A DNA stretch of 12,204 bases. Origin: a virus (Duplodnaviria; Heunggongvirae; Uroviricota; Caudoviricetes). This document shows positions 1 through 12,204 of the stretch, piece after piece (within the stretch, counting starts at the first letter, position 1; each line of letters begins with the position of its first letter). The position numbers were made by a program, and so were the translations under genes. Where the stretch lies: the IMG/VR virus record IMGVR_UViG_2667528155_000014; one strand, given 5' to 3'. The notes under the pieces are model-generated. The model was not told the DNA's origin. It made no database searches and saw nothing but the letters and a program-made list of their open reading frames with translations.

Positions 1-52
1 AAAAGTAAAGAAAAGGAAAGTAACGCCAACTGATGATGATAATAACTATTTA

Positions 53-436
53 ATGTCAGTTTTCGTCCCATTATTTCTTATTGGCTGCATTTCATATGTT
101 GCATTTAGTATACATACGTTATCCATCATAAAAGTCGGTTTTGGATTTGCCATGAAGTATGACACACGCGATACTTTCTTTTGCAGGAATAAGTATATGT
201 GGCTCAGTGAACATCCTAATGCTCGCTTTATGTTTATCGCTGAAGGAAATTATCGCGCATTAATACCTCACCGTGATGACTTTACAACATCACGTTTAAC
301 CTGTACGAGTAGTGAACCATTCTATTTACTCGTTAGGATACAAGACAAAACAGATTTTATGTTAGAGGCTTTAGAAAAGCAGGCCGCGATGCTTACTAGT
401 GATCTAAAGATAGCAATATCACCGAATGTTCGATGA
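53..436 (+). CDS. hypothetical protein, AT-rich orphan ORF (start uncertain; in-frame ATG at 197 has a better AGGA Shine-Dalgarno)
   Basis: 127-codon ORF in a visibly AT-rich stretch; hydrophobic N-terminus if started at 53; no family recognised; ATG at 197 is preceded by AGGAATAAGTAT. Confidence 0.3.
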   Translation: MSVFVPLFLIGCISYVAFSIHTLSIIKVGFGFAMKYDTRDTFFCRNKYMWLSEHPNARFMFIAEGNYRALIPHRDDFTTSRLTCTSSEPFYLLVRIQDKTDFMLEALEKQAAMLTSDLKIAISPNVR

Positions 437-618
437 CGATCTAAATCGCCAAATTTTCGGTAGCCAACCTGCTCAAAGCAGACTGTCAATTAGAGTCTGA
501 TCCAGTACAGTTCGAAGCATAAAGAAACTCTTGTCATACTACCGAATCATCCCGGATTGGCTTATAATCCCCACGTCAGCCTGAACAACTGACAACCTGT
601 CGCGCCACCGGAGCAACG

Positions 619-1218
619 ATGGCGCACTTACAACTGGTCAAACAGACCGCATCAGGGATCCTGCTCCCGGCAACACCGGAGAGTGAGGGCTTTGTACATT
701 CAGTCAAAACTGGCGAGTGGATACACGCTGATTTCAGACGTGTCCGCAACTACGCCTTTCATAAGCGTTTCTTCAAACTTCTGCAACTGGGCTTCGATTA
801 CTGGACACCTGTCGGTGGTGTGCTTTCACCAGATGAACTTTCGCTGATAAATCGCTTTGTCACTTATCTTGTTGAGATGTCCGGTCATCAATACGGTGAT
901 GTTTTAACCTCCGCAGCGGATGAATTTCTGTTGAAAGAAGGGCAGTTACGTACTGGGGATGTTGCCTTACTGAAGTCTTTCGAGCCATACCGGGCATGGG
1001 TGACGGTTCAGGCTGGTTACTTCGATGAAGTTGTTCTCCCGGATAATTGTCGCCGCAGAATTCCCAAATCTATTTCTTTCTCCCGTATGGATGAAGATAC
1101 GTTCCGGCAATTCTATAAGGATGTCTTTAACGTCCTGTGGAATTTCATCCTCTGTCGAAAATTCAGAACACCACAGGAAGCTGAAAATGTAGCGATGCAG
1201 TTGCTGGAGTTCGCCTGA
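619..1218 (+). CDS. DUF1367-family protein (YbcN-like, lambdoid nin-region gene)
   Basis: 199-aa ORF, GGAG 6 nt upstream of ATG; N-terminus MAHLQLVKQTASGILLPATPE and overall length recalled as DUF1367 style; stop overlaps next start (TGATG). Confidence 0.65.
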   Translation: MAHLQLVKQTASGILLPATPESEGFVHSVKTGEWIHADFRRVRNYAFHKRFFKLLQLGFDYWTPVGGVLSPDELSLINRFVTYLVEMSGHQYGDVLTSAADEFLLKEGQLRTGDVALLKSFEPYRAWVTVQAGYFDEVVLPDNCRRRIPKSISFSRMDEDTFRQFYKDVFNVLWNFILCRKFRTPQEAENVAMQLLEFA

Positions 1219-1508
1219 TGTCCGGGTTACGTAAAGCAGCTAAAGGTCGGCAGTGCCAGGTGAGAATTCCCGGATACTGTAACCATAACCCTGAAACCTC
1301 GGTTCTGGCCCATTACCGTCTGGCCGGTACCTGTGGAGCATCAACCAAACCCAACGATATGCAGGCATCTATTGCCTGTAGCTGTTGTCATGACCTGATT
1401 GATGGCCGGATAAAAACAACAGACTTTACCCGCACCGAACTTCGGTTAATGCATGCCGAAGGCGTAATGCGTACGCAACAAATCTGGAGAGAGGAGGGAT
1501 TAGTATGA
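1218..1508 (+). CDS. DUF1364-family Cys-rich protein (YbcO-like, putative nuclease of the nin region)
   Basis: 96 aa with conserved Cys pattern (CQVRIPGYC ... CSCCH); 1-nt overlap with upstream gene and ATGA overlap with downstream gene indicate translational coupling. Confidence 0.6.
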   Translation: MSGLRKAAKGRQCQVRIPGYCNHNPETSVLAHYRLAGTCGASTKPNDMQASIACSCCHDLIDGRIKTTDFTRTELRLMHAEGVMRTQQIWREEGLV

Positions 1509-2044
1509 TCTACCCGGTCACGACAGGTAAACCTGGTGAAATGCTTCGTCTCACTACGCTTGAGACGTTATGGGTACAGGGAAAGCTAAGAATGTGGGGG
1601 CGCTGGTCTTATATCGGAAATGGCCATCCGGGAAATATCTTCAATCAGTTGCTGGTCAGTAAAAAAATCACCCGCACAGGCGCCCGTGATGCGCTCAGGC
1701 TGCTTAAAAAATCAGGCACTACCAGGCCTGAACTGGAGCAATTTTTACGTGAGATATTGAACGGTAAGCAGAAAAGCTACCTTGCATACTGTACTGATTC
1801 TGAAGCACTGATAATCGACCGGGTTATCGGGGCAGTTCTGGCAGATCATCCCGCACTAAAGGCACTGCTTCACCAGCGTTACGAAGGACGGGGAATGAGT
1901 AAGCGAAAGATAGCTGAGAAACTTCAGGAAAAATACCCTGACTGGAGTTATGTTACCTGTCGGCGACGAATCGACCAATGGCTGTATATGGTTGAATACA
2001 TGCTTTATATCCCGCTACGGGATTCCATTGATAGGAATGTGTGA
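1505..2044 (+). CDS. putative late-gene antitermination protein Q-like
   Basis: 179-aa ORF immediately upstream of the late regulatory region and lysis genes, coupled to the nin genes. The call rests mainly on position in the lambdoid gene order; family not verified. Confidence 0.5.
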   Translation: MIYPVTTGKPGEMLRLTTLETLWVQGKLRMWGRWSYIGNGHPGNIFNQLLVSKKITRTGARDALRLLKKSGTTRPELEQFLREILNGKQKSYLAYCTDSEALIIDRVIGAVLADHPALKALLHQRYEGRGMSKRKIAEKLQEKYPDWSYVTCRRRIDQWLYMVEYMLYIPLRDSIDRNV

Positions 2045-2308
2045 TGAGTTGTGCTTATCCACTAACTGAAACTTGACAGTAAAAAGCTGCGGGTGATTTT
2101 TGTGGAAATATCAATGTGCAAGATGAATGGAAGTATAACTAAGTTATATCAGTGTTTAAATGCAGGCGAAGAGTAATAAAGCATATGATTAAGGTCAAAT
2201 TACGTCGCTGAAAAAGTATTGCAATTTGAGCCATAAACTGCTTCAATCACTGTATGCTTCGCAAAGCTGTATCGCGAGGTCAAGGATGCAGAACATGAAC
2301 ACCAGATG

Positions 2309-2339
2309 AACCCGCCACGGTGCGGGTTTTGTCGTTTTT
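2309..2339 (+). terminator. rho-independent terminator
   Basis: Stem AACCCGC / GCGGGTT with 6-nt loop CACGGT, followed by TTTTGTCGTTTTT. Confidence 0.6.
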
Positions 2340-2360
2340 AAAAGACGGCTTCAGGTGGAC

Positions 2361-2435
2361 CTACTTGCCAAAAATCAGTGCGAAGATGAGCGCAATAACA
2401 CAGATTGCGATAGCCATTTTTTCATGACACGGCAT
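2361..2435 (-). CDS. tiny hydrophobic peptide (24 aa MPCHEKMAIAICVIALIFALIFGK; 18 aa from the internal ATG at 2417)
   Basis: Minus-strand ORF below the ORF-track size cutoff; GGAG 8 nt upstream of the ATG at 2435; almost entirely hydrophobic; sits between two terminators. Confidence 0.2.
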   Translation of the reverse strand: MPCHEKMAIAICVIALIFALIFGK

Positions 2436-2450
2436 TCTCAGTTCTCCGTA

Positions 2451-2479
2451 TAAAAAAGGGCCCGCGTCAGATAGCGGGC
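2451..2479 (-). terminator. rho-independent terminator, minus-strand orientation
   Basis: Stem GCCCGC / GCGGGC (8-nt loop); on the minus strand it is followed by a T6-7 tract (plus-strand TAAAAAAGG). Confidence 0.45.
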
Positions 2480-2647
2480 AAAATCACAATTGGAAAAGGT
2501 AAGAGGCTTAAGTGCTTCATAGGGGGAAGCCTGAGGACCGTAGTAATTTCTTCATAAACCTATCAAGTTCGTATCTGCAATTGTTTAAGTTCTGTTTAAT
2601 TTCATATGCGCAGATTCACATTTTGGCATTTCAGCAAAATAAATATC

Positions 2648-2711
2648 TTGTCAGCCGCTGTCTGCGGGTAATAGGTTCCCCCCGTTGCAGTGAATCCCAC
2701 TAGCGTAGGGG
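2648..2711 (+). promoter_or_regulatory. promoter-leader module copy A (TTGTCA -35 at 2648-2653, ATAGGT -10 at 2671-2676, conserved leader hairpin 2686-2711)
   Basis: sigma70-like hexamers 17 bp apart with CTGCGG in the spacer; leader TGCAGTGAATCCCACTAGCGTAGGGG is homologous to copies B and C; candidate PR'-type late promoter. Confidence 0.4.
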
Positions 2712-2803
2712 CATCGTCAGGTTTCGCTTCCACTGTTGACGTTGCGGTTAATACCATCGGGAGGCACCCGGCACTGCGGCAAATTGAAAACGGCGGTAAT
2801 TCA

Positions 2804-2830
2804 GGGCTCACTTCGGTGAGCCCTTTTTCA
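2804..2830 (+). terminator. rho-independent terminator (tR'-like, ~120 nt downstream of module A start)
   Basis: Perfect 8-bp stem GGGCTCAC / GTGAGCCC with TTCG tetraloop, followed by TTTTT. Confidence 0.7.
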
Positions 2831-2853
2831 TTTCGCCGACATGATAAAAAGCT

Positions 2854-2915
2854 TGATCTAAAGCACCTGCCGTTTATACGTTACCTCCTGCGGTGAATCT
2901 CACCAGCGTGAGGGG
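2854..2915 (+). promoter_or_regulatory. promoter-leader module copy B (TTGATC -35, ATACGT -10, leader TGCGGTGAATCTCACCAGCGTGAGGGG at 2889-2915)
   Basis: Same architecture as copy A; CTGCCG in spacer; leader contains overlapping inverted repeats GGTGA-ATC-TCACC and CTCAC-CAGC-GTGAG. Confidence 0.4.
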
Positions 2916-3402
2916 TGTGGCACTATTCATTCTGCCAGTATGTATTGCACCACACCATGGATACGTTTCACCGGGTTGCGACCGGCACCGCACTCATATC
3001 GGGTCGTGGAGATAGATTATTCGGGCTCTACTTTTAAATTGGTCATTGATGTGATTTCTGAGCGGGAAAATGCAGAATAAATACAGAACTGCTAATGCTC
3101 TAAAGGCATATTTACGCAGTATCAGATTTACAACGAATCAGGTATTCTTAATTAGCATCATTCTGTTGGTCATCGGATTATTAGGGGCAATAAAACTTAG
3201 TGTATGGGCTCTATTGAGTTGAACAATAGTTACATGCTAATAAGATTTATCGCTTTATCTCCTTTTTTGGCGTAATAATTCAGGTAGGGTGGGTGTTAAC
3301 AGTCTATTTAACTTGTTTGTGATTTACAGCCGAACAGATTGACTGTTGTAGCCTGCTGGTGATTTGTTTTTCTCATTCCTTTTTTACTTGGAGTGATGAA
3401 CA

Positions 3403-3837
3403 ATGATTACTATCGTACTGAATAAAATTAACCAGATCTTATCCCATGCTGACTTTGGTAAGTTCCTGTTAAGACTTGCTGTTGGTGGGCTGATGTTATT
3501 TCATGGTTTGCATAAGCTCTTTGCAGGAGTTGAAGGTATTAGCGGCATGCTTATAGCTAACGGCTTACCTGGATTTTTCGCATACGGAGCAATTGTGGGA
3601 GAGGTTTTGGCTCCAGGCCTGATTATTCTTGGGGTTCTTACTCGCCCCGCAGCACTGTTGCTGGCTTTTACAATGATTGTGGCCTGGCTTCTGGTGGGGG
3701 TAGAGGAAACATGGATGCTCGAAAGTACTGGCGCGTGGGGAATAGAAAGCCTGGTGTATTTTTTTGTTGGCTCTCTGTCAGTTGCATTACTGGGGGCAGG
3801 GCGTTATTCGGTCGCCAGGGGAACTGTATGGAATTAG
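3403..3837 (+). CDS. DoxX-family integral membrane protein (moron/cargo gene)
   Basis: 144 aa, four hydrophobic segments, LMLFHGLHKL-type N-terminal helix typical of DoxX proteins; GGAG 9 nt upstream of ATG; AT-rich upstream region. Confidence 0.6.
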   Translation: MITIVLNKINQILSHADFGKFLLRLAVGGLMLFHGLHKLFAGVEGISGMLIANGLPGFFAYGAIVGEVLAPGLIILGVLTRPAALLLAFTMIVAWLLVGVEETWMLESTGAWGIESLVYFFVGSLSVALLGAGRYSVARGTVWN

Positions 3838-3886
3838 TAAACCTGGATGGATGAATACACATTTAATGAACAGGGATGATGACGTT

Positions 3887-3913
3887 GAAAAAAGCCCGTC
3901 ATACAGAACGGGC
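3887..3913 (-). terminator. hairpin with T-tract on the minus strand (possible minus-oriented terminator)
   Basis: Stem GCCCGT / ACGGGC with 8-nt loop; plus strand has A6 upstream of the stem, so the U-tract is on the minus-strand transcript only. Confidence 0.3.
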
Positions 3914-4076
3914 AAAATCACACATAAGCAGAAAATAATTGAGGTCGCTTCATGGGAGAAGCAGAAAGAACATAATGATTTTTTTCTGAACCGGTCAAGT
4001 GTGATGTCTTAGCTTTTTGAAGGTTTAATTCTCCGTGCGCAGTTTCGCATTTTGAGTAATTTATTTGGAAGAGGCC

Positions 4077-4140
4077 TTGCCTGCCAGAATCTGCGGACGA
4101 TAAATTTTTCTCATTGCGGTGAATCTCACTAGCGTTGAGG
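4077..4140 (+). promoter_or_regulatory. promoter-leader module copy C (TTGCCT -35 at 4077-4082, ATAAAT -10 at 4100-4105, leader 4115-4140), likely promoter of the tRNA/lysis transcript
   Basis: Best-matching hexamers of the three copies, 17-bp spacer with CTGCGG; leader TGCGGTGAATCTCACTAGCGTTGAGG; a shared CCGGCACCGCA box at 4211-4223 directly abuts the tRNA. Confidence 0.45.
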
Positions 4141-4228
4141 CTTGCTGAAATGGAGAATTTTCGCGAAGCAGATTGTGTATCAGCGCGCAATCTACCGGAA
4201 TAATAGCGGTCCGGCACCGCAGCGTCAT

Positions 4229-4305
4229 GGCCCTTTAGCTCAGTTGGTCAGAGCGTGCGACTCATAATCGCCAGGTCGCTGGTTCAAGTCCAGCAAGGGC
4301 CACCA
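4229..4305 (+). tRNA. tRNA-Ile2 (anticodon CAU, lysidine type; by anticodon alone could also be tRNA-Met)
   Basis: Full cloverleaf: acceptor GGCCCTT/AAGGGCC, D-arm GCTC...GAGC, anticodon loop CTCATAA, T-arm GCTGG-TTCAAGT-CCAGC, encoded CCA. T-arm and anticodon arm match my recollection of E. coli ileX; a prophage copy would be ileZ-like. Confidence 0.85.
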
Positions 4306-4308
4306 AAA

Positions 4309-4384
<76 letters not shown>

Positions 4385-4649
4385 GTTTTGAATGGGCGCT
4401 GCTTTTTGCAAAATTGCTGTGTAAAAATACTGACCTTCCGGTCCAGCGCTCATCCAAAAGCACTCCGTTAAAATCCTGGCAACCATGGGTGGTTTGTTGG
4501 ATGGAGTGCCTCCGAATAATAAAACTCGCGTTATAAAGGCTGCGCATTTGCGTGGCCTTTTTCGTATTCAGATCTGCAGCATACTCAGCCCGGAAGGCTG
4601 AATTTTTTCACCAGTACACAGCACCATCCGGAAACCGGGGGTGAGGTAT

Positions 4650-4985
4650 ATGAAAATGAATGACAAAAACCCTGAATTCTGGGCGGCGGTTTTGACCGGA
4701 CTCAAAAATGCGTGGCCCCAGTTACTGGGGGCATCAATGGCCGGACTCATTGCTTATGCCCGCCTGATATACGATGGCGTCACGCGAAAAAATAAATGGC
4801 TTGAGGGCGTCCTTTGTGGCGCCCTTTCTTTATGTATCACCAGTGCGCTGGATGCGTTTGGCCTTCCTGTATCGATATCACCCTTTGTCGGTGGCGTGAT
4901 TGGCTTCGTCGGCGTGGATAAATTACGTGAAATTGCCATCAGTGCGCTTAAAAAACGGGCAGGGATAAATGATGAGAACCAGTAA
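4650..4985 (+). CDS. S: class I holin, lambda S-like, with dual-start motif (Met-Lys-Met)
   Basis: MKMNDKNPEF... starts at ATG 4650 and ATG 4656 behind GGGGGTGAGG; three hydrophobic segments; C-terminus KKRAGINDENQ resembles lambda S KKAGVEDGRNQ as recalled. Confidence 0.85.
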   Translation: MKMNDKNPEFWAAVLTGLKNAWPQLLGASMAGLIAYARLIYDGVTRKNKWLEGVLCGALSLCITSALDAFGLPVSISPFVGGVIGFVGVDKLREIAISALKKRAGINDENQ

Positions 4986-5391
4986 AATTTCTCGCGGGAT
5001 CCGCAACAACAACCCCGGCAATATCCGGTGGGGTGATGAGTGGCAGGGCCTGGTACCCAAAGCACAGCGCACTGATAAATCATTCTGCCAGTTCACTACG
5101 CCTGAGTATGGTATCCGGGCGATGATCATCATCCTGCGCAATTACCAGCGTAAGCACGGGCTGAACACGGTTACCGGCATTATTAAACGCTGGGCGCCGC
5201 CGAACGAGAACAACACGCTGGCGTATATCAACAACGTGGCTCAGGCGACGGGTGTTACTCCCGACCAGCGCATTGATACCAGTGACAGTCGTTTCATGAT
5301 GAAGCTGTTGCAGGCCATTATTAAGCACGAGAACGGTAGCCAGCCATACAGCTTTGATACGTTTATCCGCGCGCTCGAACTGGCGGGTTAA
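4969..5391 (+). CDS. putative endolysin (small peptidoglycan hydrolase, family not resolved; N-terminal RNNNPGNIRWG motif)
   Basis: 140 aa, no TM segment, start overlaps the holin stop. Assignment rests mainly on position between holin and Rz/Rz1. Confidence 0.55.
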   Translation: MMRTSKISRGIRNNNPGNIRWGDEWQGLVPKAQRTDKSFCQFTTPEYGIRAMIIILRNYQRKHGLNTVTGIIKRWAPPNENNTLAYINNVAQATGVTPDQRIDTSDSRFMMKLLQAIIKHENGSQPYSFDTFIRALELAG

Positions 5392-5413
5392 GTGAGCGTG
5401 TATTAAAAGCGAA

Positions 5414-5450
5414 AACCCCGATTGCGGCAAACAGTCGGGGTTTTCTGTTT
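5414..5450 (+). terminator. rho-independent terminator (T-rich on both sides, probably bidirectional) between endolysin and spanin genes
   Basis: 8-bp stem AACCCCGA / TCGGGGTT with 13-nt loop, followed by TTTTCTGTTT; plus-strand AAAAGCGAAAA upstream gives a U-tract for the minus strand too. Confidence 0.55.
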
Positions 5451-5539
5451 CTGCACCTTGAGGAAAGCAAGGGAGAAATTATGTATAGGGAGGTGTGTTC
5501 CCTGTGAGGAAGTATAAACGAATTCTGTTGAGGTTGACT

Positions 5540-5677
5540 ATGAAAAACGGCCTTGAAATAGATGCTCCGTTAACAAAAGAAATCAGTAGTGCTACGGCAT
5601 GGGCTATACGGGCTGTGGCGTTGACGGTTGTGCTGTATGGTATTGCGCGCCTGATTGTGGCGATTCGCTGGTGGTAG
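5540..5677 (+). CDS. small protein with C-terminal transmembrane segment (45 aa), unknown function
   Basis: ATG at 5540 preceded by GAGG at 6-nt spacing; hydrophobic AWAIRAVALTVVLYGIARLIVAI; stop 5 nt before the Rz start. Below the usual size threshold, hence low confidence. Confidence 0.3.
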   Translation: MKNGLEIDAPLTKEISSATAWAIRAVALTVVLYGIARLIVAIRWW

Positions 5678-5681
5678 AGCC

Positions 5682-6254
5682 ATGAACCGTATAACGATTA
5701 TCGCAATAATTTCGTTCCTGGTTGTGGTTGTTATGCTGGTATTCAGCCGGGCCGACCTTGCTGTATCAGAAAGTGATAACCGGATCCTTCGCAATGATAA
5801 CGCGCTACAGGGGCAGGTTATCGCCACTCAGGTTTTCAACTTTAACCGGTTTAATCAGGTTGCTGATAATACCAGCCGCCTTAACTCCCTGATTGATGCC
5901 GGTTCCGAAAAAACAGTTATTGAATACCGGGAGATACTCCGTCGTGAAAAAACCTGTGATTTGCCTGTTCCTGCTGATATCGCTGACGGGCTGCTCGACC
6001 ACGCGTACCGTTTACGTGCCAGCGCAATGTACCCCGATCCCCGGAACGCTGATGCAGCCGGTGGTGACACCATTACCGCCAGCTCTCTGACATACTGCCA
6101 GGCTGTTCTCTGGATCGGGCCGCTGCTGGCTACTATTGAGAAGGCGAATAACCAACTGACTGGTATCAGTAAAATTGAGTTGGAACGCAAGCAACTAGGA
6201 AAAATTATGGAGTTAAAGGACAGAGACGTTAAGGTTGTAAATCATTTTAAATGA
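5682..6254 (+). CDS. Rz: Rz-like inner-membrane spanin (i-spanin)
   Basis: MNRITIIAIISFLVVVVMLVF N-terminal signal-anchor like lambda Rz (MSRVTAIISALVICIIV), then a long charged/helical periplasmic domain; contains an embedded +1-frame lipoprotein ORF. Confidence 0.8.
   Translation: MNRITIIAIISFLVVVVMLVFSRADLAVSESDNRILRNDNALQGQVIATQVFNFNRFNQVADNTSRLNSLIDAGSEKTVIEYREILRREKTCDLPVPADIADGLLDHAYRLRASAMYPDPRNADAAGGDTITASSLTYCQAVLWIGPLLATIEKANNQLTGISKIELERKQLGKIMELKDRDVKVVNHFK
5944..6090 (+). CDS. Rz1: Rz1-like outer-membrane lipoprotein spanin (o-spanin), embedded in Rz in the +1 frame; GTG start (alternative in-frame ATG at 5893)
   Basis: VKKPVICLFLLISLTGC lipobox (LTGC) followed by a proline-rich mature region (TPIPGTLMQPVVTPLPPAL); GGGAGA 9 nt upstream of GTG 5944; entirely inside Rz. 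Confidence 0.75.
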   Translation: MKKPVICLFLLISLTGCSTTRTVYVPAQCTPIPGTLMQPVVTPLPPAL

Positions 6255-6373
6255 ATATGAATGTGATAAATGTAAGTTGGGCTGAATAGTTTTCAGCTCT
6301 ACATCATGTAATGATATGTATCTCGATAATTAAATTATTTTTTATAGATATATTTGTAGTAAGTGTGGATTTG

Positions 6374-6405
6374 AAGGGTATCTTAATAAAAATACCCTTT
6401 TCTGT
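6374..6405 (+). terminator. possible terminator hairpin downstream of Rz
   Basis: 8-bp stem AAGGGTAT / ATACCCTT with 10-nt AT-rich loop, followed by TTTCTGT; weak U-tract. Confidence 0.3.
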
Positions 6406-6433
6406 CGAATGTTTACAAACGATAATTTTTATC

Positions 6434-7342
6434 CTATTGAAGGAAGTTCCGAGCCCGAAGAAAGTTTTGAGCAATCAGGTCGCCAATTGGATTTAAAACA
6501 TATGAATTAAAGTCATTTATGGTCGATACGCCAAATGCATCTAGAGTTAACTTTAAAGCAGGAAATGTTTCAAAGAACATCTCATCGCTTTCAAAGCTGG
6601 TGATTCCAGTCCTTTTTCCAAGTAGGTCTTGATAGTTTGTTATGTATTGCTTGTCTGTGAAGATAACGCCTTTTAAGCTGAGGAGATCAATGTTTATTTT
6701 TCTCAAAGACTCTATTTTATCTAAGAATTTAATGTAATCAATATCATAGCGAGCATAGTATTCTTTGTGGGCTGAATGGTTTTGCTCTACGGTAAAGCCA
6801 ATTAATCCAAAGTGAGTTTCATTTCTTTCAGCAAGAGCTGTCATGTTAATACCGTTTCGTATCTTATTTATGTTTCTGAGGTAATATATTAGAGAGAGAA
6901 ATTTAATGTCGTTTGTTGTTAATTTAGATGTCACCTCAAGAGCGTGATCTATAACTATACTATCCTCTTCTTCTTCAGTTTGAATTTTAGAAACGATTAG
7001 CTCTTTAAGTAACTCCGATTTTTCATCAAATCCTTTTCGAGCCACCTGAGTTACAGCTTGGTTCATCGAATATTGAATGTCAGGGTCGGATAATTTCTCT
7101 TTTAATTTATGATCAAGATCACTAGAAAGTTTAGCTGCAATCTGATTACCAAATTCTATCGCTCGTTGGTTTACAAGTTTATATGCTTCCTCTTTTAAAG
7201 AAGCCATTTGTGCTTGAACTACTAATTCACAGATAGTAACTACTTCAGTAGTAGTATTACCAATGATAGCATCACCGGTTACTTGGATTGCGGTAGAACC
7301 ATCTCCGACATGTTGACCCGACTTATGATCGAAAAGACTCAT
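6434..7342 (-). CDS. hypothetical 302-aa protein, AT-rich cargo gene of unknown function (candidate phage-exclusion/defence component)
   Basis: Long clean ORF antisense to the late operon; AAGGA 6 nt upstream of ATG 7342; ATGA overlap with the upstream small ORF; no family recognised by inspection. Confidence 0.7.
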   Translation of the reverse strand: MSLFDHKSGQHVGDGSTAIQVTGDAIIGNTTTEVVTICELVVQAQMASLKEEAYKLVNQRAIEFGNQIAAKLSSDLDHKLKEKLSDPDIQYSMNQAVTQVARKGFDEKSELLKELIVSKIQTEEEEDSIVIDHALEVTSKLTTNDIKFLSLIYYLRNINKIRNGINMTALAERNETHFGLIGFTVEQNHSAHKEYYARYDIDYIKFLDKIESLRKINIDLLSLKGVIFTDKQYITNYQDLLGKRTGITSFESDEMFFETFPALKLTLDAFGVSTINDFNSYVLNPIGDLIAQNFLRARNFLQ

Positions 7343-7584
7343 TTTTTGTCCTTTTCATTAATGGTTAAATTACCACTGACTTGTATTCCTGAAGAGTTAT
7401 TACCAATCACTTGGCTTATAGAGGATGACTTCTTCTTGTCACTTATTAAGTTGGCTACAGCAGTTAGAAAAGCCCCTAAGCTGACTAAGAAAGCCAGTAG
7501 AGAAGCCAGTCCATGATGCTGGTATGCCTGATACCCGAATCCGCATGTTGCAACGAACGAAATTAGACAGATTAACTTTCTCAC
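7339..7584 (-). CDS. small two-TM membrane protein (81 aa, GTG start), coupled to the 302-aa ORF
   Basis: Two hydrophobic segments followed by a Ser/Lys-rich tail with repeated xQVxGN motif; stop overlaps the downstream ATG; GTG start with weak GAGAG upstream, so start and reality are less certain. Confidence 0.45.
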   Translation of the reverse strand: MRKLICLISFVATCGFGYQAYQHHGLASLLAFLVSLGAFLTAVANLISDKKKSSSISQVIGNNSSGIQVSGNLTINEKDKK

Positions 7585-7596
7585 GCGTCATATCTC

Positions 7597-7624
7597 TCTA
7601 TAGGTTAAATGGCACTAAAAGCAA
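7597..7624 (-). promoter_or_regulatory. candidate sigma70 promoter for the minus-strand cassette (TTGCTT-16 bp-TATAGA on the minus strand)
   Basis: Hexamers read on the minus strand; predicted start leaves only a few nt before the GTG, so the transcript may be near-leaderless. Confidence 0.3.
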
Positions 7625-7630
7625 CGCAGG

Positions 7631-7654
7631 ATGTGCTTTGCTCTGAGCACATCA
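7631..7654. promoter_or_regulatory. perfect inverted repeat GATGTGCT-N8-AGCACATC immediately upstream of the candidate -35 (possible operator/activator site)
   Basis: 8-bp perfect palindromic arms with 8-bp spacer at about -42 to -65 relative to the minus-strand promoter. Confidence 0.3.
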
Positions 7655-7933
7655 TTGATTCATCTTACTAATATCTATTAATTAAAAGATAAAACTAGGG
7701 GGTTTATGGTAAAACAGGACTGGACAGTGCTGCAACACCAGTCTCTCGCCGACTATGCCAAAACGGGTATATCACCAAAAGAGTGGTGCTAAGCAGGGAG
7801 ACGGATTAACACATCTGCACGTTTAGGTGAAGAGTGGACTGACCTGATACAGGTATATGATCCTGTTCTAAGCATTAATTAGTATAATCGATATTCATTC
7901 TCATTTGATGGGGCCTGTTATGCGATCCAACCT

Positions 7934-8010
7934 GTTACGGGGCGGCGACCGTGTGGATTCTCTCTATTTATGAATATTGTCCACTATTTGCCATTTCCGT
8001 TTTTCTCTCC
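7934..8010. other. lambda-type cos region: cosN-like 12-mer GGGCGGCGACCG at 7940-7951 with flanking cosQ-like and cosB(R3)-like sequence
   Basis: GTTACGGGGCGGCGACC is identical to the lambda cohesive-end junction as I recall it (lambda GGGCGGCGACCT); downstream CTATTTATGAA and TTTCCGTTTTTCT align with lambda left-end sequence at the same spacing. Confidence 0.6.
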
Positions 8011-8140
8011 GAGTACAACATGATTTCTATCCAACAAACAGGGCAACGCCGATGCCAGCACGTGCTAAACGTCCATGCCGACAAGGGACGTGCGGCAATC
8101 ATAGTCGCATTGCACGCGTATAAATAACAAGGAGGGGGGA

Positions 8141-8374
8141 ATGCGCCTCACTGTATTAGATGATGATCCCGGCAGGAAGATTGATATCAGAGTAGAGCGG
8201 TACACTGTCTATCTTGATGGTGTTGATGTTAAGCGCGCGCTCACTGCTGATGATGAGAAAGGTGAAGTAATCGCTGTTGCATGTGATGAATATGGCCACG
8301 CGACCATAGAGAACGGCGAAGTGAAGAGGCAGATGCTTTACGGCTTAGTGAGGATTGAACGGTGTCCGCACTGA
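8141..8374 (+). CDS. hypothetical small protein (77 aa) at the head of the packaging module
   Basis: Strong Shine-Dalgarno AAGGAGGGGGG before the ATG; acidic protein; not recognised. Confidence 0.6.
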   Translation: MRLTVLDDDPGRKIDIRVERYTVYLDGVDVKRALTADDEKGEVIAVACDEYGHATIENGEVKRQMLYGLVRIERCPH

Positions 8375-8392
8375 TTTACAGGTAATGGTGGT

Positions 8393-8746
8393 ATGAACAA
8401 AGAACCGCGCATCTATGACAGCAGATGGGGTAAAGCCCGCCAGGCATTCCTGCGCGAACATCCTTTATGCATTATGTGTCAGGCACTGGGAAGGATTGAG
8501 CTGGCGACTGTGGTCGATCATATCACGCCACACAGGTTGAAAGATGCTCTCATAACAGGAAATCCCGCAGATATCTCCCGGGCGCAAAAGCTGTTCTGGG
8601 ACAGAGGAAACTGGCAAGGGTTATGTAAACCCCATCACGACTCAACCAAACAGCGTATGGAAAAGAGCGGGAGAATGACTGGCTGTGATGCTGATGGGAT
8701 CCCGCTTGACCCCGATTCACACTGGAACAGGGGGAGGGGCGGGTAA
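8393..8746 (+). CDS. phage HNH endonuclease (terminase-associated)
   Basis: HNH motif: CIMCQ ... DHITPH ... N ... CKPHHD; GGTGG before ATG; located directly upstream of terS/terL as in HK97-like packaging modules. Confidence 0.85.
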   Translation: MNKEPRIYDSRWGKARQAFLREHPLCIMCQALGRIELATVVDHITPHRLKDALITGNPADISRAQKLFWDRGNWQGLCKPHHDSTKQRMEKSGRMTGCDADGIPLDPDSHWNRGRGG

Positions 8747-8960
8747 AAACTTAAATACCTTTGCAGTAAATGACCCCCGCTTCTCCTTTCTGTGTACAAC
8801 CGCGAAATGAAAAGTTTTTTTTTGGCTTGTTTTTTGGTTAAAAAACAACCTCGAATTACTTCAGTGTATTGATATATAAGAAAATGATGAAAACAGCAAA
8901 GCTACTGTATTAAAATACATATGTGATTTAATGCAGTAGTTTTATTGGGAGGTGCCCGGC

Positions 8961-9425
8961 ATGGCAGGGAGACGTCCGAAACCGTCCCATCTGAAAGCGG
9001 TAACCGGCAACCCAAGCAAGCGAAAACTCAATGACAAAGAGCCGTTGCCCTCACGCGAAATACCGTCGCCGCCCCCGCACCTGACCGACTGGGGAAAGGT
9101 TGCCTGGGGAAAACTGACCGTACTGCTGGATGGGATGGGAGTGATGACGGTAGCTGACGGACTGGCACTGGAGCGCCTCTGTGATATCTACGCCGATATC
9201 CTTCAGTTACGTGACACTGTCGCAGTGGAAGGCAGAACCTATACGGTACAGACAGATGGTGGATTTCTGATAAAACCGCATCCTGCTGTCGCCATGCTGG
9301 CAGACGCTGACCGCCGTTTTAAAAGTTATCTGGTTGAATTCGGTCTGACCCCGGCCGCCAGAACGAAGGTAAAAGTTGATGGTGGAGAAAAAGACGAAGA
9401 TCCGTTCAACCAGTTCTTCGGTTGA
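8961..9425 (+). CDS. terminase small subunit, P27 family
   Basis: N-terminus MAGRRPKPSHLKAVTGNPSKRKLN and HLTDWGKVAW are typical of P27-family TerS; GGGAGG 8 nt upstream of ATG 8961 (the ORF track begins at an in-frame GTG at 8952). Confidence 0.85.
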   Translation: MAGRRPKPSHLKAVTGNPSKRKLNDKEPLPSREIPSPPPHLTDWGKVAWGKLTVLLDGMGVMTVADGLALERLCDIYADILQLRDTVAVEGRTYTVQTDGGFLIKPHPAVAMLADADRRFKSYLVEFGLTPAARTKVKVDGGEKDEDPFNQFFG

Positions 9426-11118
9426 TCCAGCCACGCAGTATGCAATGGATGTGGGTACCGGTAAGAAAATTGCCGGACCAGATATTCGTAATGCCTGTAA
9501 ACGTCATTTGCGCGATCTTGAATTTGGGCATAAGCGCGGCTTGTCATGGGATACAGAAGCAGCACTACGCGCGATTGATTTTTTTGCGAAGGTACTGAAG
9601 CTTAACGGTGGGGAGTTTGAAGGAGAACCCTTCATTCTGTTGCCCTGGCAGTGCTTTATTGTGGGATCCATTTTTGGATGGAAACGGCGGAACGGGGCGC
9701 GCCGCTTTCGTACCGCTTATGTGGAATCAGGCAAGGGATCAGGTAAATCCCCTCTGGCGGCAGGGGTTGGCCTGTACTGCATGACTGCGGATAAGGAGCC
9801 CAGGGCCGAGGTGTATGCTGCGGCGACGAAAAAAGACCAGGCTATGGTGTTGTTTCGTGATGCGGTGGCGATGGTGGATCAATCACCGGCGCTGGCACAA
9901 CGTATCAGCAAATCAGGAGGGGCGGGCAAAGAGTGGAATCTGGCATTTTTGCAGACGGGATCATTTTTCCGCCCGATTAGTTCTGATGACGGGCAGTCAG
10001 GCCCACGACCACATTGTGCCTTGATTGATGAAATCCATGAGCACAAAAGCAACATTGTGGTTGAAATGATGCGGGCTGGTACAAAAGGCAGGCGTCAGGC
10101 GCTGATTTTCATGATAACTAACAGTGGTCATGACAAAACCAGCGTCTGCTATGACTATCACCGGTACGGACAAAAAGTCGCAGCCGGACAACTGGATAAT
10201 GATGCATTTTTCTCTTTCATTTGTTCCCTTGATGAAAGAGATGATCCCTTCCAGGATGAATCCTGCTGGCCAAAAGCGAACCCTTCCATGGGGCATACAT
10301 TTGAGGACAGTTATTTACGGGAACAGGTTGATGATGCCCGCGGTATTCCGTCCAAAGAGAGCATTGTACGACGCCTTAATTTCTGTCAGTGGGTTGATGC
10401 TGAAAATCCATGGATTAGCAGTGATGCCTGGATGGCATGCGAAAAAAAATTCGATCCTGAAGAGTTCCGGGGGCAGATTTGTTACGGAGGACTGGATCTT
10501 TCCGGCAAAAGAGATCTCACTTCTCTTTCTCTGTATTTCCCTGGAAGCAATGCGTTGCTTACTGAGTTCTGGACGCCGCGCGATACACTTTTCGATCGCG
10601 CAAGGGTGGATCGTGTTCCTTATGACGTCTGGCTGAAGAAGGGGTATGTACACGCGCCGCCAGGTGCTGCAATTGATTATGGCTTTGTGGCAAAACGTCT
10701 GGCAACACTTGCTGCAATGTTCGACATCCGTAAGGTGGCGTTCGACAGTTACCACATTGATTACCTTTTGCCGGAACTGGATGATGAAGGTGTAAACATC
10801 CCACTGATTCCGCACGGCCAGGGATTCGGCAAGTCCGCCAAATCCGGACTGTGGATGCCGCATTCCATTGAGTTGTTTGAACAACTCATCATGGATAAAA
10901 AAATAAACATCGTACTCAACCCCTGCCTTCGCTGGTGTGCGGCCAATGCCGTTATAGAGGAGGACAAAAGCGGAAACCGTGTATTCAGCAAGCGTCGCAG
11001 CAATGGGCGTATTGATGGCGTGGTGTCCGGTGCCATGGCAATTGGTGTTGCAGGATCCTGTGAAGATGACGGCGACGGCGATATCAGTGATTTCTTTAAT
11101 GACCCCATATTTATGTGA
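9379..11118 (+). CDS. terminase large subunit (Terminase_1/HK97-like)
   Basis: ~580 aa; conserved N-terminal TQYAMDVGTGKKIAG...CKRHLRDLE, Walker A-like SGKGSGKS, and a nuclease domain with acidic residues; start overlaps the terS end (ATG 9379; alternative ATG 9445 would remove conserved residues). Confidence 0.9.
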   Translation: MVEKKTKIRSTSSSVDPATQYAMDVGTGKKIAGPDIRNACKRHLRDLEFGHKRGLSWDTEAALRAIDFFAKVLKLNGGEFEGEPFILLPWQCFIVGSIFGWKRRNGARRFRTAYVESGKGSGKSPLAAGVGLYCMTADKEPRAEVYAAATKKDQAMVLFRDAVAMVDQSPALAQRISKSGGAGKEWNLAFLQTGSFFRPISSDDGQSGPRPHCALIDEIHEHKSNIVVEMMRAGTKGRRQALIFMITNSGHDKTSVCYDYHRYGQKVAAGQLDNDAFFSFICSLDERDDPFQDESCWPKANPSMGHTFEDSYLREQVDDARGIPSKESIVRRLNFCQWVDAENPWISSDAWMACEKKFDPEEFRGQICYGGLDLSGKRDLTSLSLYFPGSNALLTEFWTPRDTLFDRARVDRVPYDVWLKKGYVHAPPGAAIDYGFVAKRLATLAAMFDIRKVAFDSYHIDYLLPELDDEGVNIPLIPHGQGFGKSAKSGLWMPHSIELFEQLIMDKKINIVLNPCLRWCAANAVIEEDKSGNRVFSKRRSNGRIDGVVSGAMAIGVAGSCEDDGDGDISDFFNDPIFM

Positions 11119-11123
11119 AGCCT

Positions 11124-12204
<1,081 letters not shown>

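Follow-up and report, generated by a model that had tools for sequence, protein, structure and literature searches.

The left end of the window (the whole 12,204-nucleotide stretch of DNA that was analysed) carries an open reading frame on the + strand, followed on the same strand by three genes assigned by Pfam and PHROGs: DUF1367 (619–1218), YbcO/DUF1364 (1218–1508) and the Q-like antiterminator gene DUF1133 (1505–2044). The ORF listing of this 12.2-kb window gives an ATG-to-stop ORF of 127 codons at 53..436 (+). In the same frame, the segment from window base 2 to ATG53 contains zero stop codons, and the continuous translation reads KVKKRKVTPTDDDNNYL-MSVFVPLF.... As the frame is open from base 2, it passes beyond the left window edge. 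At the local base composition (stop frequency of ~0.07 per codon), an open frame of 144 codons would occur by chance with a probability of ~3e-5. The sequence beyond the edge is provided by three contigs, L008, L011 and L012, which show 100% identity to window positions 1–11218. L008 contains an ORF of 346 codons at 8778..9818 that ends at window position 436 (window position = L008 position − 9382). The true start, L008 8778, precedes window base 1 by 604 nt, and these 5′ 604 nt of the gene were taken from the identical public contigs, beyond the window's own sequence. Codons 203–346, the 3′ 42% of the gene, fall inside the window (2..436, +), with the stop codon at 434–436. The 346-codon ORF was present in all six loci that encode the window's exact DUF1367 protein, as retrieved by an exact-protein contig look-up, and in 24/24 contigs read with that protein. 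The frame, the identical contigs and the end-to-end homologues described below agree that window 2–436 forms the 3′ part of a single gene of 346 codons, known as an E. coli 'hypothetical protein' (clusters P0024 and P0054). We hold this assignment with high confidence, as a statement about anatomy and origin and apart from function.

The first-pass annotation had instead proposed an independent small orphan gene, a moron of 127 aa starting at ATG53 or of about 80 aa (79 aa in the database calls) starting at ATG197. The ORF at 53..436 does exist, the sequence AGGA at 185–188 sits 8 nt ahead of ATG197, and databases do contain 'proteins' of 136 and 79 aa. The 5′ boundary of the 127-codon ORF, however, is an artefact of the window edge, since an in-frame upstream stop is absent and the residues encoded by 2–52 match the interior of full-length relatives. 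ATG53 corresponds to the internal Met220, a position at which relatives have M, I or L without conservation. ATG197 corresponds to the internal Met268 of the 346-aa protein (Met267 in the P0024 numbering), which lies in the motif YDTRDTFFCxxxYM and is kept as a residue in at least 90% of the family alignment. The AGGA that had been read as the better Shine-Dalgarno sequence (185..199, + strand, with its ATG) is real, but it derives from an Arg AGG codon and is missing in 11/11 relatives examined, being confined to the present lineage. The database entries P0001 (136 aa), P0002 (79 aa) and P0003 (74 aa, partial) were all called on contigs whose first base already lies within the gene. Another copy, L003, has an open frame as far as the end of its contig, and the residues ICIPYLTLIAPKIKRGK that seem to lie 'upstream' in it correspond to an internal part of the 345-aa relative P0004. 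Nei-Gojobori dN/dS between the window and L003 was equal on either side of ATG197 (0.29 for the visible N-terminal part and 0.30 for the C-terminal part). Structure prediction of the 127-aa start variant gave a pLDDT of 40, which is unusable. Nor is the product an orphan: full-length relatives, forming 31 clusters at 90% identity and 20 representatives at 50%, match it at their C-termini. These observations leave a separate small gene extremely improbable.

The part of the gene within the window encodes the last membrane segment and a soluble domain. Positions 2..52 (+) encode the end of a Lys/Arg-rich loop, KVKKRKVTPTDDDNNYL, that is predicted to be cytoplasmic from the positive-inside rule and can be aligned to the K-rich loop present in full-length relatives, for example QVKKVKSTPCCDINYS of P0004. 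The loop includes a GATGATGAT run at 32–40 (+) encoding DDD, the copy number of which differs between alleles; P0024 (49 contigs) has DD and 345 aa, and P0054 (27 contigs) has DDD and 346 aa. The predicted transmembrane (TM) helix 7, MSVFVPLFLIGCISYVAFSIHTL, is encoded at 53..121 (+) and coincides with a hydropathy peak at ~226–235 of the family alignment and with a helix modelled by AlphaFold2 at 211–255. A conserved C-terminal soluble domain of ~100 aa, encoded at 134..433 (+), contains the motifs YDTRDTFFC, GNYRALIPH, SRLTC and PFY. Alignment columns identify two invariant Cys codons on the + strand, TGC at 182–184 and TGT at 302–304.

Homology searches connected the fragment with proteins of similar full length. 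By BLASTP, the 127 residues showed 56–57% identity to the C-terminal third (residues ~217–346) of two plasmid-encoded proteins, 346 and 351 aa long (E values of 2e-54 and 7e-51) and 46% identity to a third one of 334 aa (E 2e-39). Plasmid blastn found 67–72% identical DNA, corresponding to the 3′ ends of annotated genes of 334–351 codons. When 1.84 billion representatives were searched exhaustively with HMMER, 20 relatives were recovered, mostly of 320–390 aa and matched at their C-terminus; in P0004 (345 aa) the match covered residues 219–343 with 232 bits. The 31 full-length clusters at 90% identity are all from Enterobacterales. The complete product of the L008 gene aligns over 95–100% of its length with 28 members at 36–75% identity, and members of ~345 aa with the same helix pattern include P0024/P0054, WP_097446565.1, WP_041456265.1, WP_244582493.1 and P0004. 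The invariant motifs K139-Y-x-W142, D162, YDxRDxFxC262, Y285-R286, R299-L-x-C302 and P307-x-Y309 are all present, and C262, C302 and D162 are still invariant in relatives at 16–20% identity. The named members, all 'hypothetical protein' from Enterobacterales, come from E. coli, E. albertii, Salmonella, Citrobacter, Serratia, Kluyvera, Kosakonia, Cedecea, Shimwellia, Pectobacterium, Brenneria, Pantoea and others.

The statement that the product belongs to no recognised family was borne out by the profile searches, in which Pfam, NCBIfam, PHROGs, PADLOC and the PDB returned no curated match. Pfam-A and NCBIfam gave nothing below E~0.03, whether the query was the fragment, the complete product or a distant relative. 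PHROGs yielded only families of unknown function at E>=0.005, the best being phrog_25375, likewise of unknown function, with E=0.0047 to the relative P0053 only; no match reached a curated cut-off. The PDB profile search gave 0 matches at E<=10, a search of PADLOC-DB 2.0 at E<=1 with the fragment, the full-length protein and 7 relatives hit 0 families, and a wider profile search including distant members added zero annotated relatives. The family is uncurated but already sequenced, and the present gene adds one more case to a familiar type of cargo of prophages and mobile elements.

We compared the base composition of the gene with that of its surroundings. The ORF at 53–433 has a GC content of 0.375 and a GC3 of 0.33, as against 0.482 and 0.485 for the three genes at 619–2041 (chi-square p=2e-4), and 200-nt windows had GC contents of 0.325–0.40 over 1–500 and of 0.44–0.53 over 600–2000. 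The comparison (37.5% vs 48.2% for 619–2044) confirms the AT-richness relative to the nin genes noted in the first-pass annotation. Windows of 384 nt that are as AT-rich or more make up 11% of the 12.2 kb, so that the ORF is not the sole AT-rich patch. For the full 346-codon gene, the GC content is 0.338, with 0.29–0.30 in the middle and ~0.5 in the flanks (0.45–0.57 in the flanking genes). These values support the view that the full gene is compositionally foreign to its neighbours.

Copies of the gene occur in very different surroundings, and DNA homology among them is limited to L008 8743–9850/9870, corresponding to window −639 to 468/488. The cassette thus delimited, ~1.1 kb, consists of a ~35-nt 5′ leader with a ribosome-binding site, the coding sequence and a 3′ tail of 30–50 nt. 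In the window, blastn and alignments place the tail that moves with the gene at 437..488; the homology stops at 468 in the Salmonella and L003 copies and at 488 in a Citrobacter prophage copy. It is followed at 489..618 by a junction sequence (489–~546) and then by the leader that precedes DUF1367 in the prophage backbone. Backbone homology resumes at ~547–557, from window 557 in L022 and from ~547–554 in E. coli prophages, the latter position being converted from a concatenated flank query (query position 462–469).

In the present Rac-like E. coli prophage, the cassette lies on the + strand between DUF1187/orf56 and DUF1367. In a Citrobacter braakii prophage that has homologous DnaC-like, DUF1627 and DUF1367 genes, a 76% identical copy lies downstream of Q on the opposite strand and convergent to it, in the Q-to-holin moron slot. 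Further copies are found directly 3′ of parM-parR on IncF plasmids including p948 of ETEC H10407, next to DUF3440-ParB on an ehx IncF plasmid, upstream of a convergent AAA-family ATPase gene on a Pantoea megaplasmid, next to a VirB-type T4SS on a Pectobacterium ICE, close to arsenic-resistance genes in a Kluyvera island, and as an islet between yfgI and guaA on the Salmonella chromosome. These contexts have no neighbour gene in common, and a conserved partner gene is absent. The proposed horizontal acquisition is thereby well founded, as the same cassette occupies another slot and orientation in the Citrobacter prophage as well as IncF plasmids, an ICE and chromosomal islets. The family profile detected the gene in 4/185,579 species-representative genomes (GTDB), of which a first scan with the fragment alone had given zero matches. 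The gene is present on 40/72,556 plasmids, and tblastn found a homologue in 0/50,697 deposited phage genomes. Being rare in genomes and plasmids and absent from those phages, the gene behaves as sparse accessory DNA. Salmonella entries are often partial (112–301 aa) because assembly contigs break inside the gene; L001 and L002 start at the window equivalent of 213, and L017 and L018 end at codon 301. These breaks may reflect low coverage of DNA with ~30% GC, a repeat or an IS, low coverage being as good an explanation as an IS.

In the prophage, the gene sits between a replication module (DnaC-like, DUF1627, DUF1187) and the nin-like DUF1367-YbcO-Q genes. Its placement at a module boundary is therefore correct, and 'upstream of the nin genes' is a fair description for a lambdoid prophage, given that DUF1367, YbcO and the Q-like gene follow. 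In related E. coli prophages with the ydaV-DUF1627...DUF1367-DUF1364-DUF1133 backbone, the place just ahead of DUF1367 is taken by hokD and small ORFs, and other related prophages have Rha there. This differing content indicates a variable cargo position ahead of DUF1367. An exact empty site was not found, the left flank having no match in E. coli complete genomes. For the ORF or its flanks, neither near nor distant DNA matches were obtained in E. coli complete genomes or INPHARED, save a distant match of the flanks to the DUF1367 gene in E. coli genomes. Megablast with several kb of the prophage likewise gave no match in 5,426 complete E. coli genomes or INPHARED phages; identical prophage copies are many in public draft assemblies and metagenomes (72 index blocks). 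One otherwise near-identical copy, L010, has an extra YecR-like ORF (11540–11881, at window ~2126) just 3′ of the Q-like gene.

Other features lie further to the right in the window. An ORF-poor stretch of 1.3 kb between the Q-like gene and a DoxX gene contains a match to the Rfam sRNA family STnc100 at 2657–2834 (+), with 66.2 bits against a gathering score of 47. The Q-to-holin interval is the classic late-promoter moron slot; here the gene for a DoxX-family membrane protein (3403–3837, +; Pfam 1.1e-20) lies between Q and holin. ARAGORN and Rfam both identified a tRNA-Met (CAT) at 4229–4305 (+), and a partial tRNA-like Rfam match (44.8 bits, model positions 8–63) at 4316–4373 (+) received no call from ARAGORN. 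The GC minimum of the window, 0.30, is near 6193. Between the lysis genes and terminase, a very AT-rich pair on the − strand (6434–7584) comprises an ORF of 302 aa and an overlapping hydrophobic one of 81 aa. The 302-aa product is listed under PF28206 (Vpar_1526) in precomputed tables; our hmmscan found no Pfam family at E<=0.01, and PADLOC found no match. This pair looks like another cargo cassette.

We then consider the signals by which the gene might be expressed. A consensus scan found no sigma-70 promoter-like site on the + strand upstream of the true start (L008 8778), the total number of sites being that expected from shuffled sequences, and there was no terminator-like hairpin between the stop codon (436) and DUF1367 (619). 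The sole + strand terminator-like hairpin, a strong one at L008 8641–8666, is outside the window and 112 nt upstream of the true start; it follows a 56-codon ORF and has a 9-bp stem with 7 GC pairs and a T-rich tail. Possibly it corresponds to a tR-type terminator of lambda, which early-right transcription would have to pass in order to reach the gene. In eight other contexts, an extended −10-like element, TCTGTTATAAAAA (TGnTATAAA), is found ~60 nt upstream of the ATG; it is missing from the present prophage copy, where it would fall outside the retained homology. Transcription of the gene probably proceeds as part of the early-right operon, by read-through or antitermination, or else starts at a weak local promoter.

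The lack of a predicted promoter and terminator in the present prophage, together with the absence of a known function and the many partial database entries of Salmonella orthologues, might suggest functionless hitch-hiking DNA or a decaying remnant. The partial entries, however, are truncations at contig ends, and the gene was intact in every contig examined. Its length of ~345 aa and its motifs are kept across genera. Comparison of the full gene with seven homologues gave dN/dS values of 0.19–0.38, and the C-terminal 100 codons, with 0.09–0.26 against the same seven, are the most constrained part of the gene; a remnant would sit badly with ratios of 0.2–0.4 and a still tighter C-terminal domain. 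These ratios show that the gene is real and under purifying selection, and we consider decay or mere hitch-hiking very improbable.

We examined the full-length product by structure prediction. AlphaFold2, run with 28 family members, gave a weak model (pLDDT 57.6 overall), its helical core scoring 60–80 and the greater part of its C-terminal domain <50, and it placed helices at 10–25, 32–53, 60–92, 99–123, 129–160, 172–199 and 211–255. Family-averaged hydropathy had peaks at ~17, 42, 84, 107, 145 (weaker), 185 and 229. These profiles predict a polytopic protein that crosses the inner membrane with ~7 TM helices. Its loops rich in K/R, at 53–72, 120–139 and 200–218, would likely be cytoplasmic, and the D162-IPF-D166 loop and the C-terminal domain (~246–345) likely periplasmic, the latter on account of the count of seven TM helices and the positive-inside rule. 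The fifth segment is only moderately hydrophobic (smoothed KD ~1.0–1.3), and if it did not span the membrane, the C-terminal domain would be cytoplasmic. Such a six-helix alternative is disfavoured because KVKKRK would then lie outside, against the positive-inside rule. C262 and C302, being invariant down to 16–20% identity, fit a periplasmic disulfide and are probably bonded to each other in this domain. A lipoprotein was also considered, as the ORF start MSVFVPLFLIGC is lipobox-like and PHROGs returned a 'lipoprotein' family at E=0.33; most relatives have Tyr in place of the Cys, and the segment forms TM7 within a longer protein, which rules this out. Foldseek with the full-length model gave nothing significant, the best hits having E 0.29 and TM 0.18 in the PDB (TRP channels) and E 1.9 in BFVD.

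The gene can be set against known types of prophage cargo. Like the morons defined in HK97 and HK022 (Cumby et al. 2012, PMC3594210), it has a GC content unlike that of its neighbours, lies between conserved modules and is shared by unrelated elements; unlike them, the present copy is without a consensus promoter or terminator and is co-directional within the early-right operon. The term 'moron' used in the first-pass annotation is thus apt as regards foreign GC and horizontal cargo, but the consensus promoter and terminator were not found here. The presence of the cassette on plasmids, an ICE and chromosomal islets as well makes it general mobile-element cargo rather than a phage-specific moron. 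In E. coli lambdoid (Qin-like) prophages, hokD has the same position, with the ydaV/DUF1627 replication module on one side and DUF1367 on the other, whereas its content is unrelated: hokD is a type I toxin of ~50 aa, as compared with a polytopic protein of 346 aa, and Rfam revealed no antisense RNA partner for the present gene.

The superinfection-exclusion protein SieA of P22, an inner-membrane protein of 162–164 aa whose 3 TM helices are accompanied by a cytoplasmic FxRYPxEAxxFNK motif (PMC10883804), is similarly prophage-borne and stands alone without partner genes, and exclusion of this sort is the type of function that we tentatively favour; the present product differs from it in having 346 aa and ~7 TM helices. 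Membership of the SieA family was rejected at an hhalign probability of 1.1% for our family profile against SieA; PFDATFNK resembles the PxEAxxFNK part of the motif, but the two are not in register and are predicted to face opposite sides of the membrane. P22 GtrC, an O-antigen-modifying glucosyltransferase of temperate phages, shares with our protein a polytopic inner-membrane architecture, carriage by a prophage, and conserved acidic residues facing the periplasm with a periplasmic domain (both predicted in our protein); it differs in its 486 aa and in acting with GtrA and GtrB. GtrC membership was rejected as well (hhalign probability 0.7%), gtrA and gtrB neighbours being absent in every context.

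As to what the protein might do, one tentative possibility is that it would act as a protective accessory at the periplasmic face of the inner membrane, for whichever element carries the gene. It would do so by blocking the entry of incoming DNA or phage, or by altering an envelope component. We favour this protective role because the gene is a stand-alone, membrane-embedded and AT-rich cargo of three kinds of mobile elements. The main alternative, conceivable but rather doubtful, is a membrane enzyme that faces the periplasm and would modify some component of the envelope, in the manner of lysogenic conversion and not as a DNA blocker. The highest conservation is in the acidic loop (D162, D166) and in Y254, R257, D258, Y285, R286 and R299 of the C-terminal domain; D162, D166 and the C-terminal polar residues are kept in relatives of <20% identity, and omega is lowest in the C-terminal domain. 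These conserved polar residues would fit an enzyme or a binder of a fixed ligand at least as well as an exclusion protein engaged in an arms race, interfaces of the latter kind not typically showing such conservation. Many surface-polysaccharide genes are AT-rich, as this gene is, and besides plasmids, ICEs and prophages it occupies a fixed chromosomal islet in Salmonella serovars. On the other hand, the protein matches no curated enzyme family and is unrelated to P22 GtrC, GtrA/GtrB-like or other partners are not nearby, and the predicted topology is uncertain. Returning to the protective role, we propose, speculatively, that the family of ~345 aa may represent a new class of stand-alone envelope proteins, with 7 TM helices and a disulfide-bonded periplasmic domain of a new fold. 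Its members, carried by prophages, IncF virulence plasmids (ETEC p948 among them), ICEs and islets, would shield the element on which they travel, either keeping DNA or phages out or remodelling the envelope, and would do so in a way unrelated to SieA, Imm, Cor and Gtr.

The locus illustrates that an ORF starting near the edge of a window can be the tail of a longer gene, and that truncated contigs place matching short 'proteins' in databases, which seemingly confirm the short ORF. The family itself is confined to Enterobacterales and has been repeatedly captured by mobile elements; its carriers include ETEC and enterohaemolysin (ehx) IncF plasmids as well as an islet that is common on the chromosome of Salmonella Kentucky. 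AT-rich, single-gene membrane cargo of this kind is a reasonable source of candidate exclusion or surface-modifying functions.
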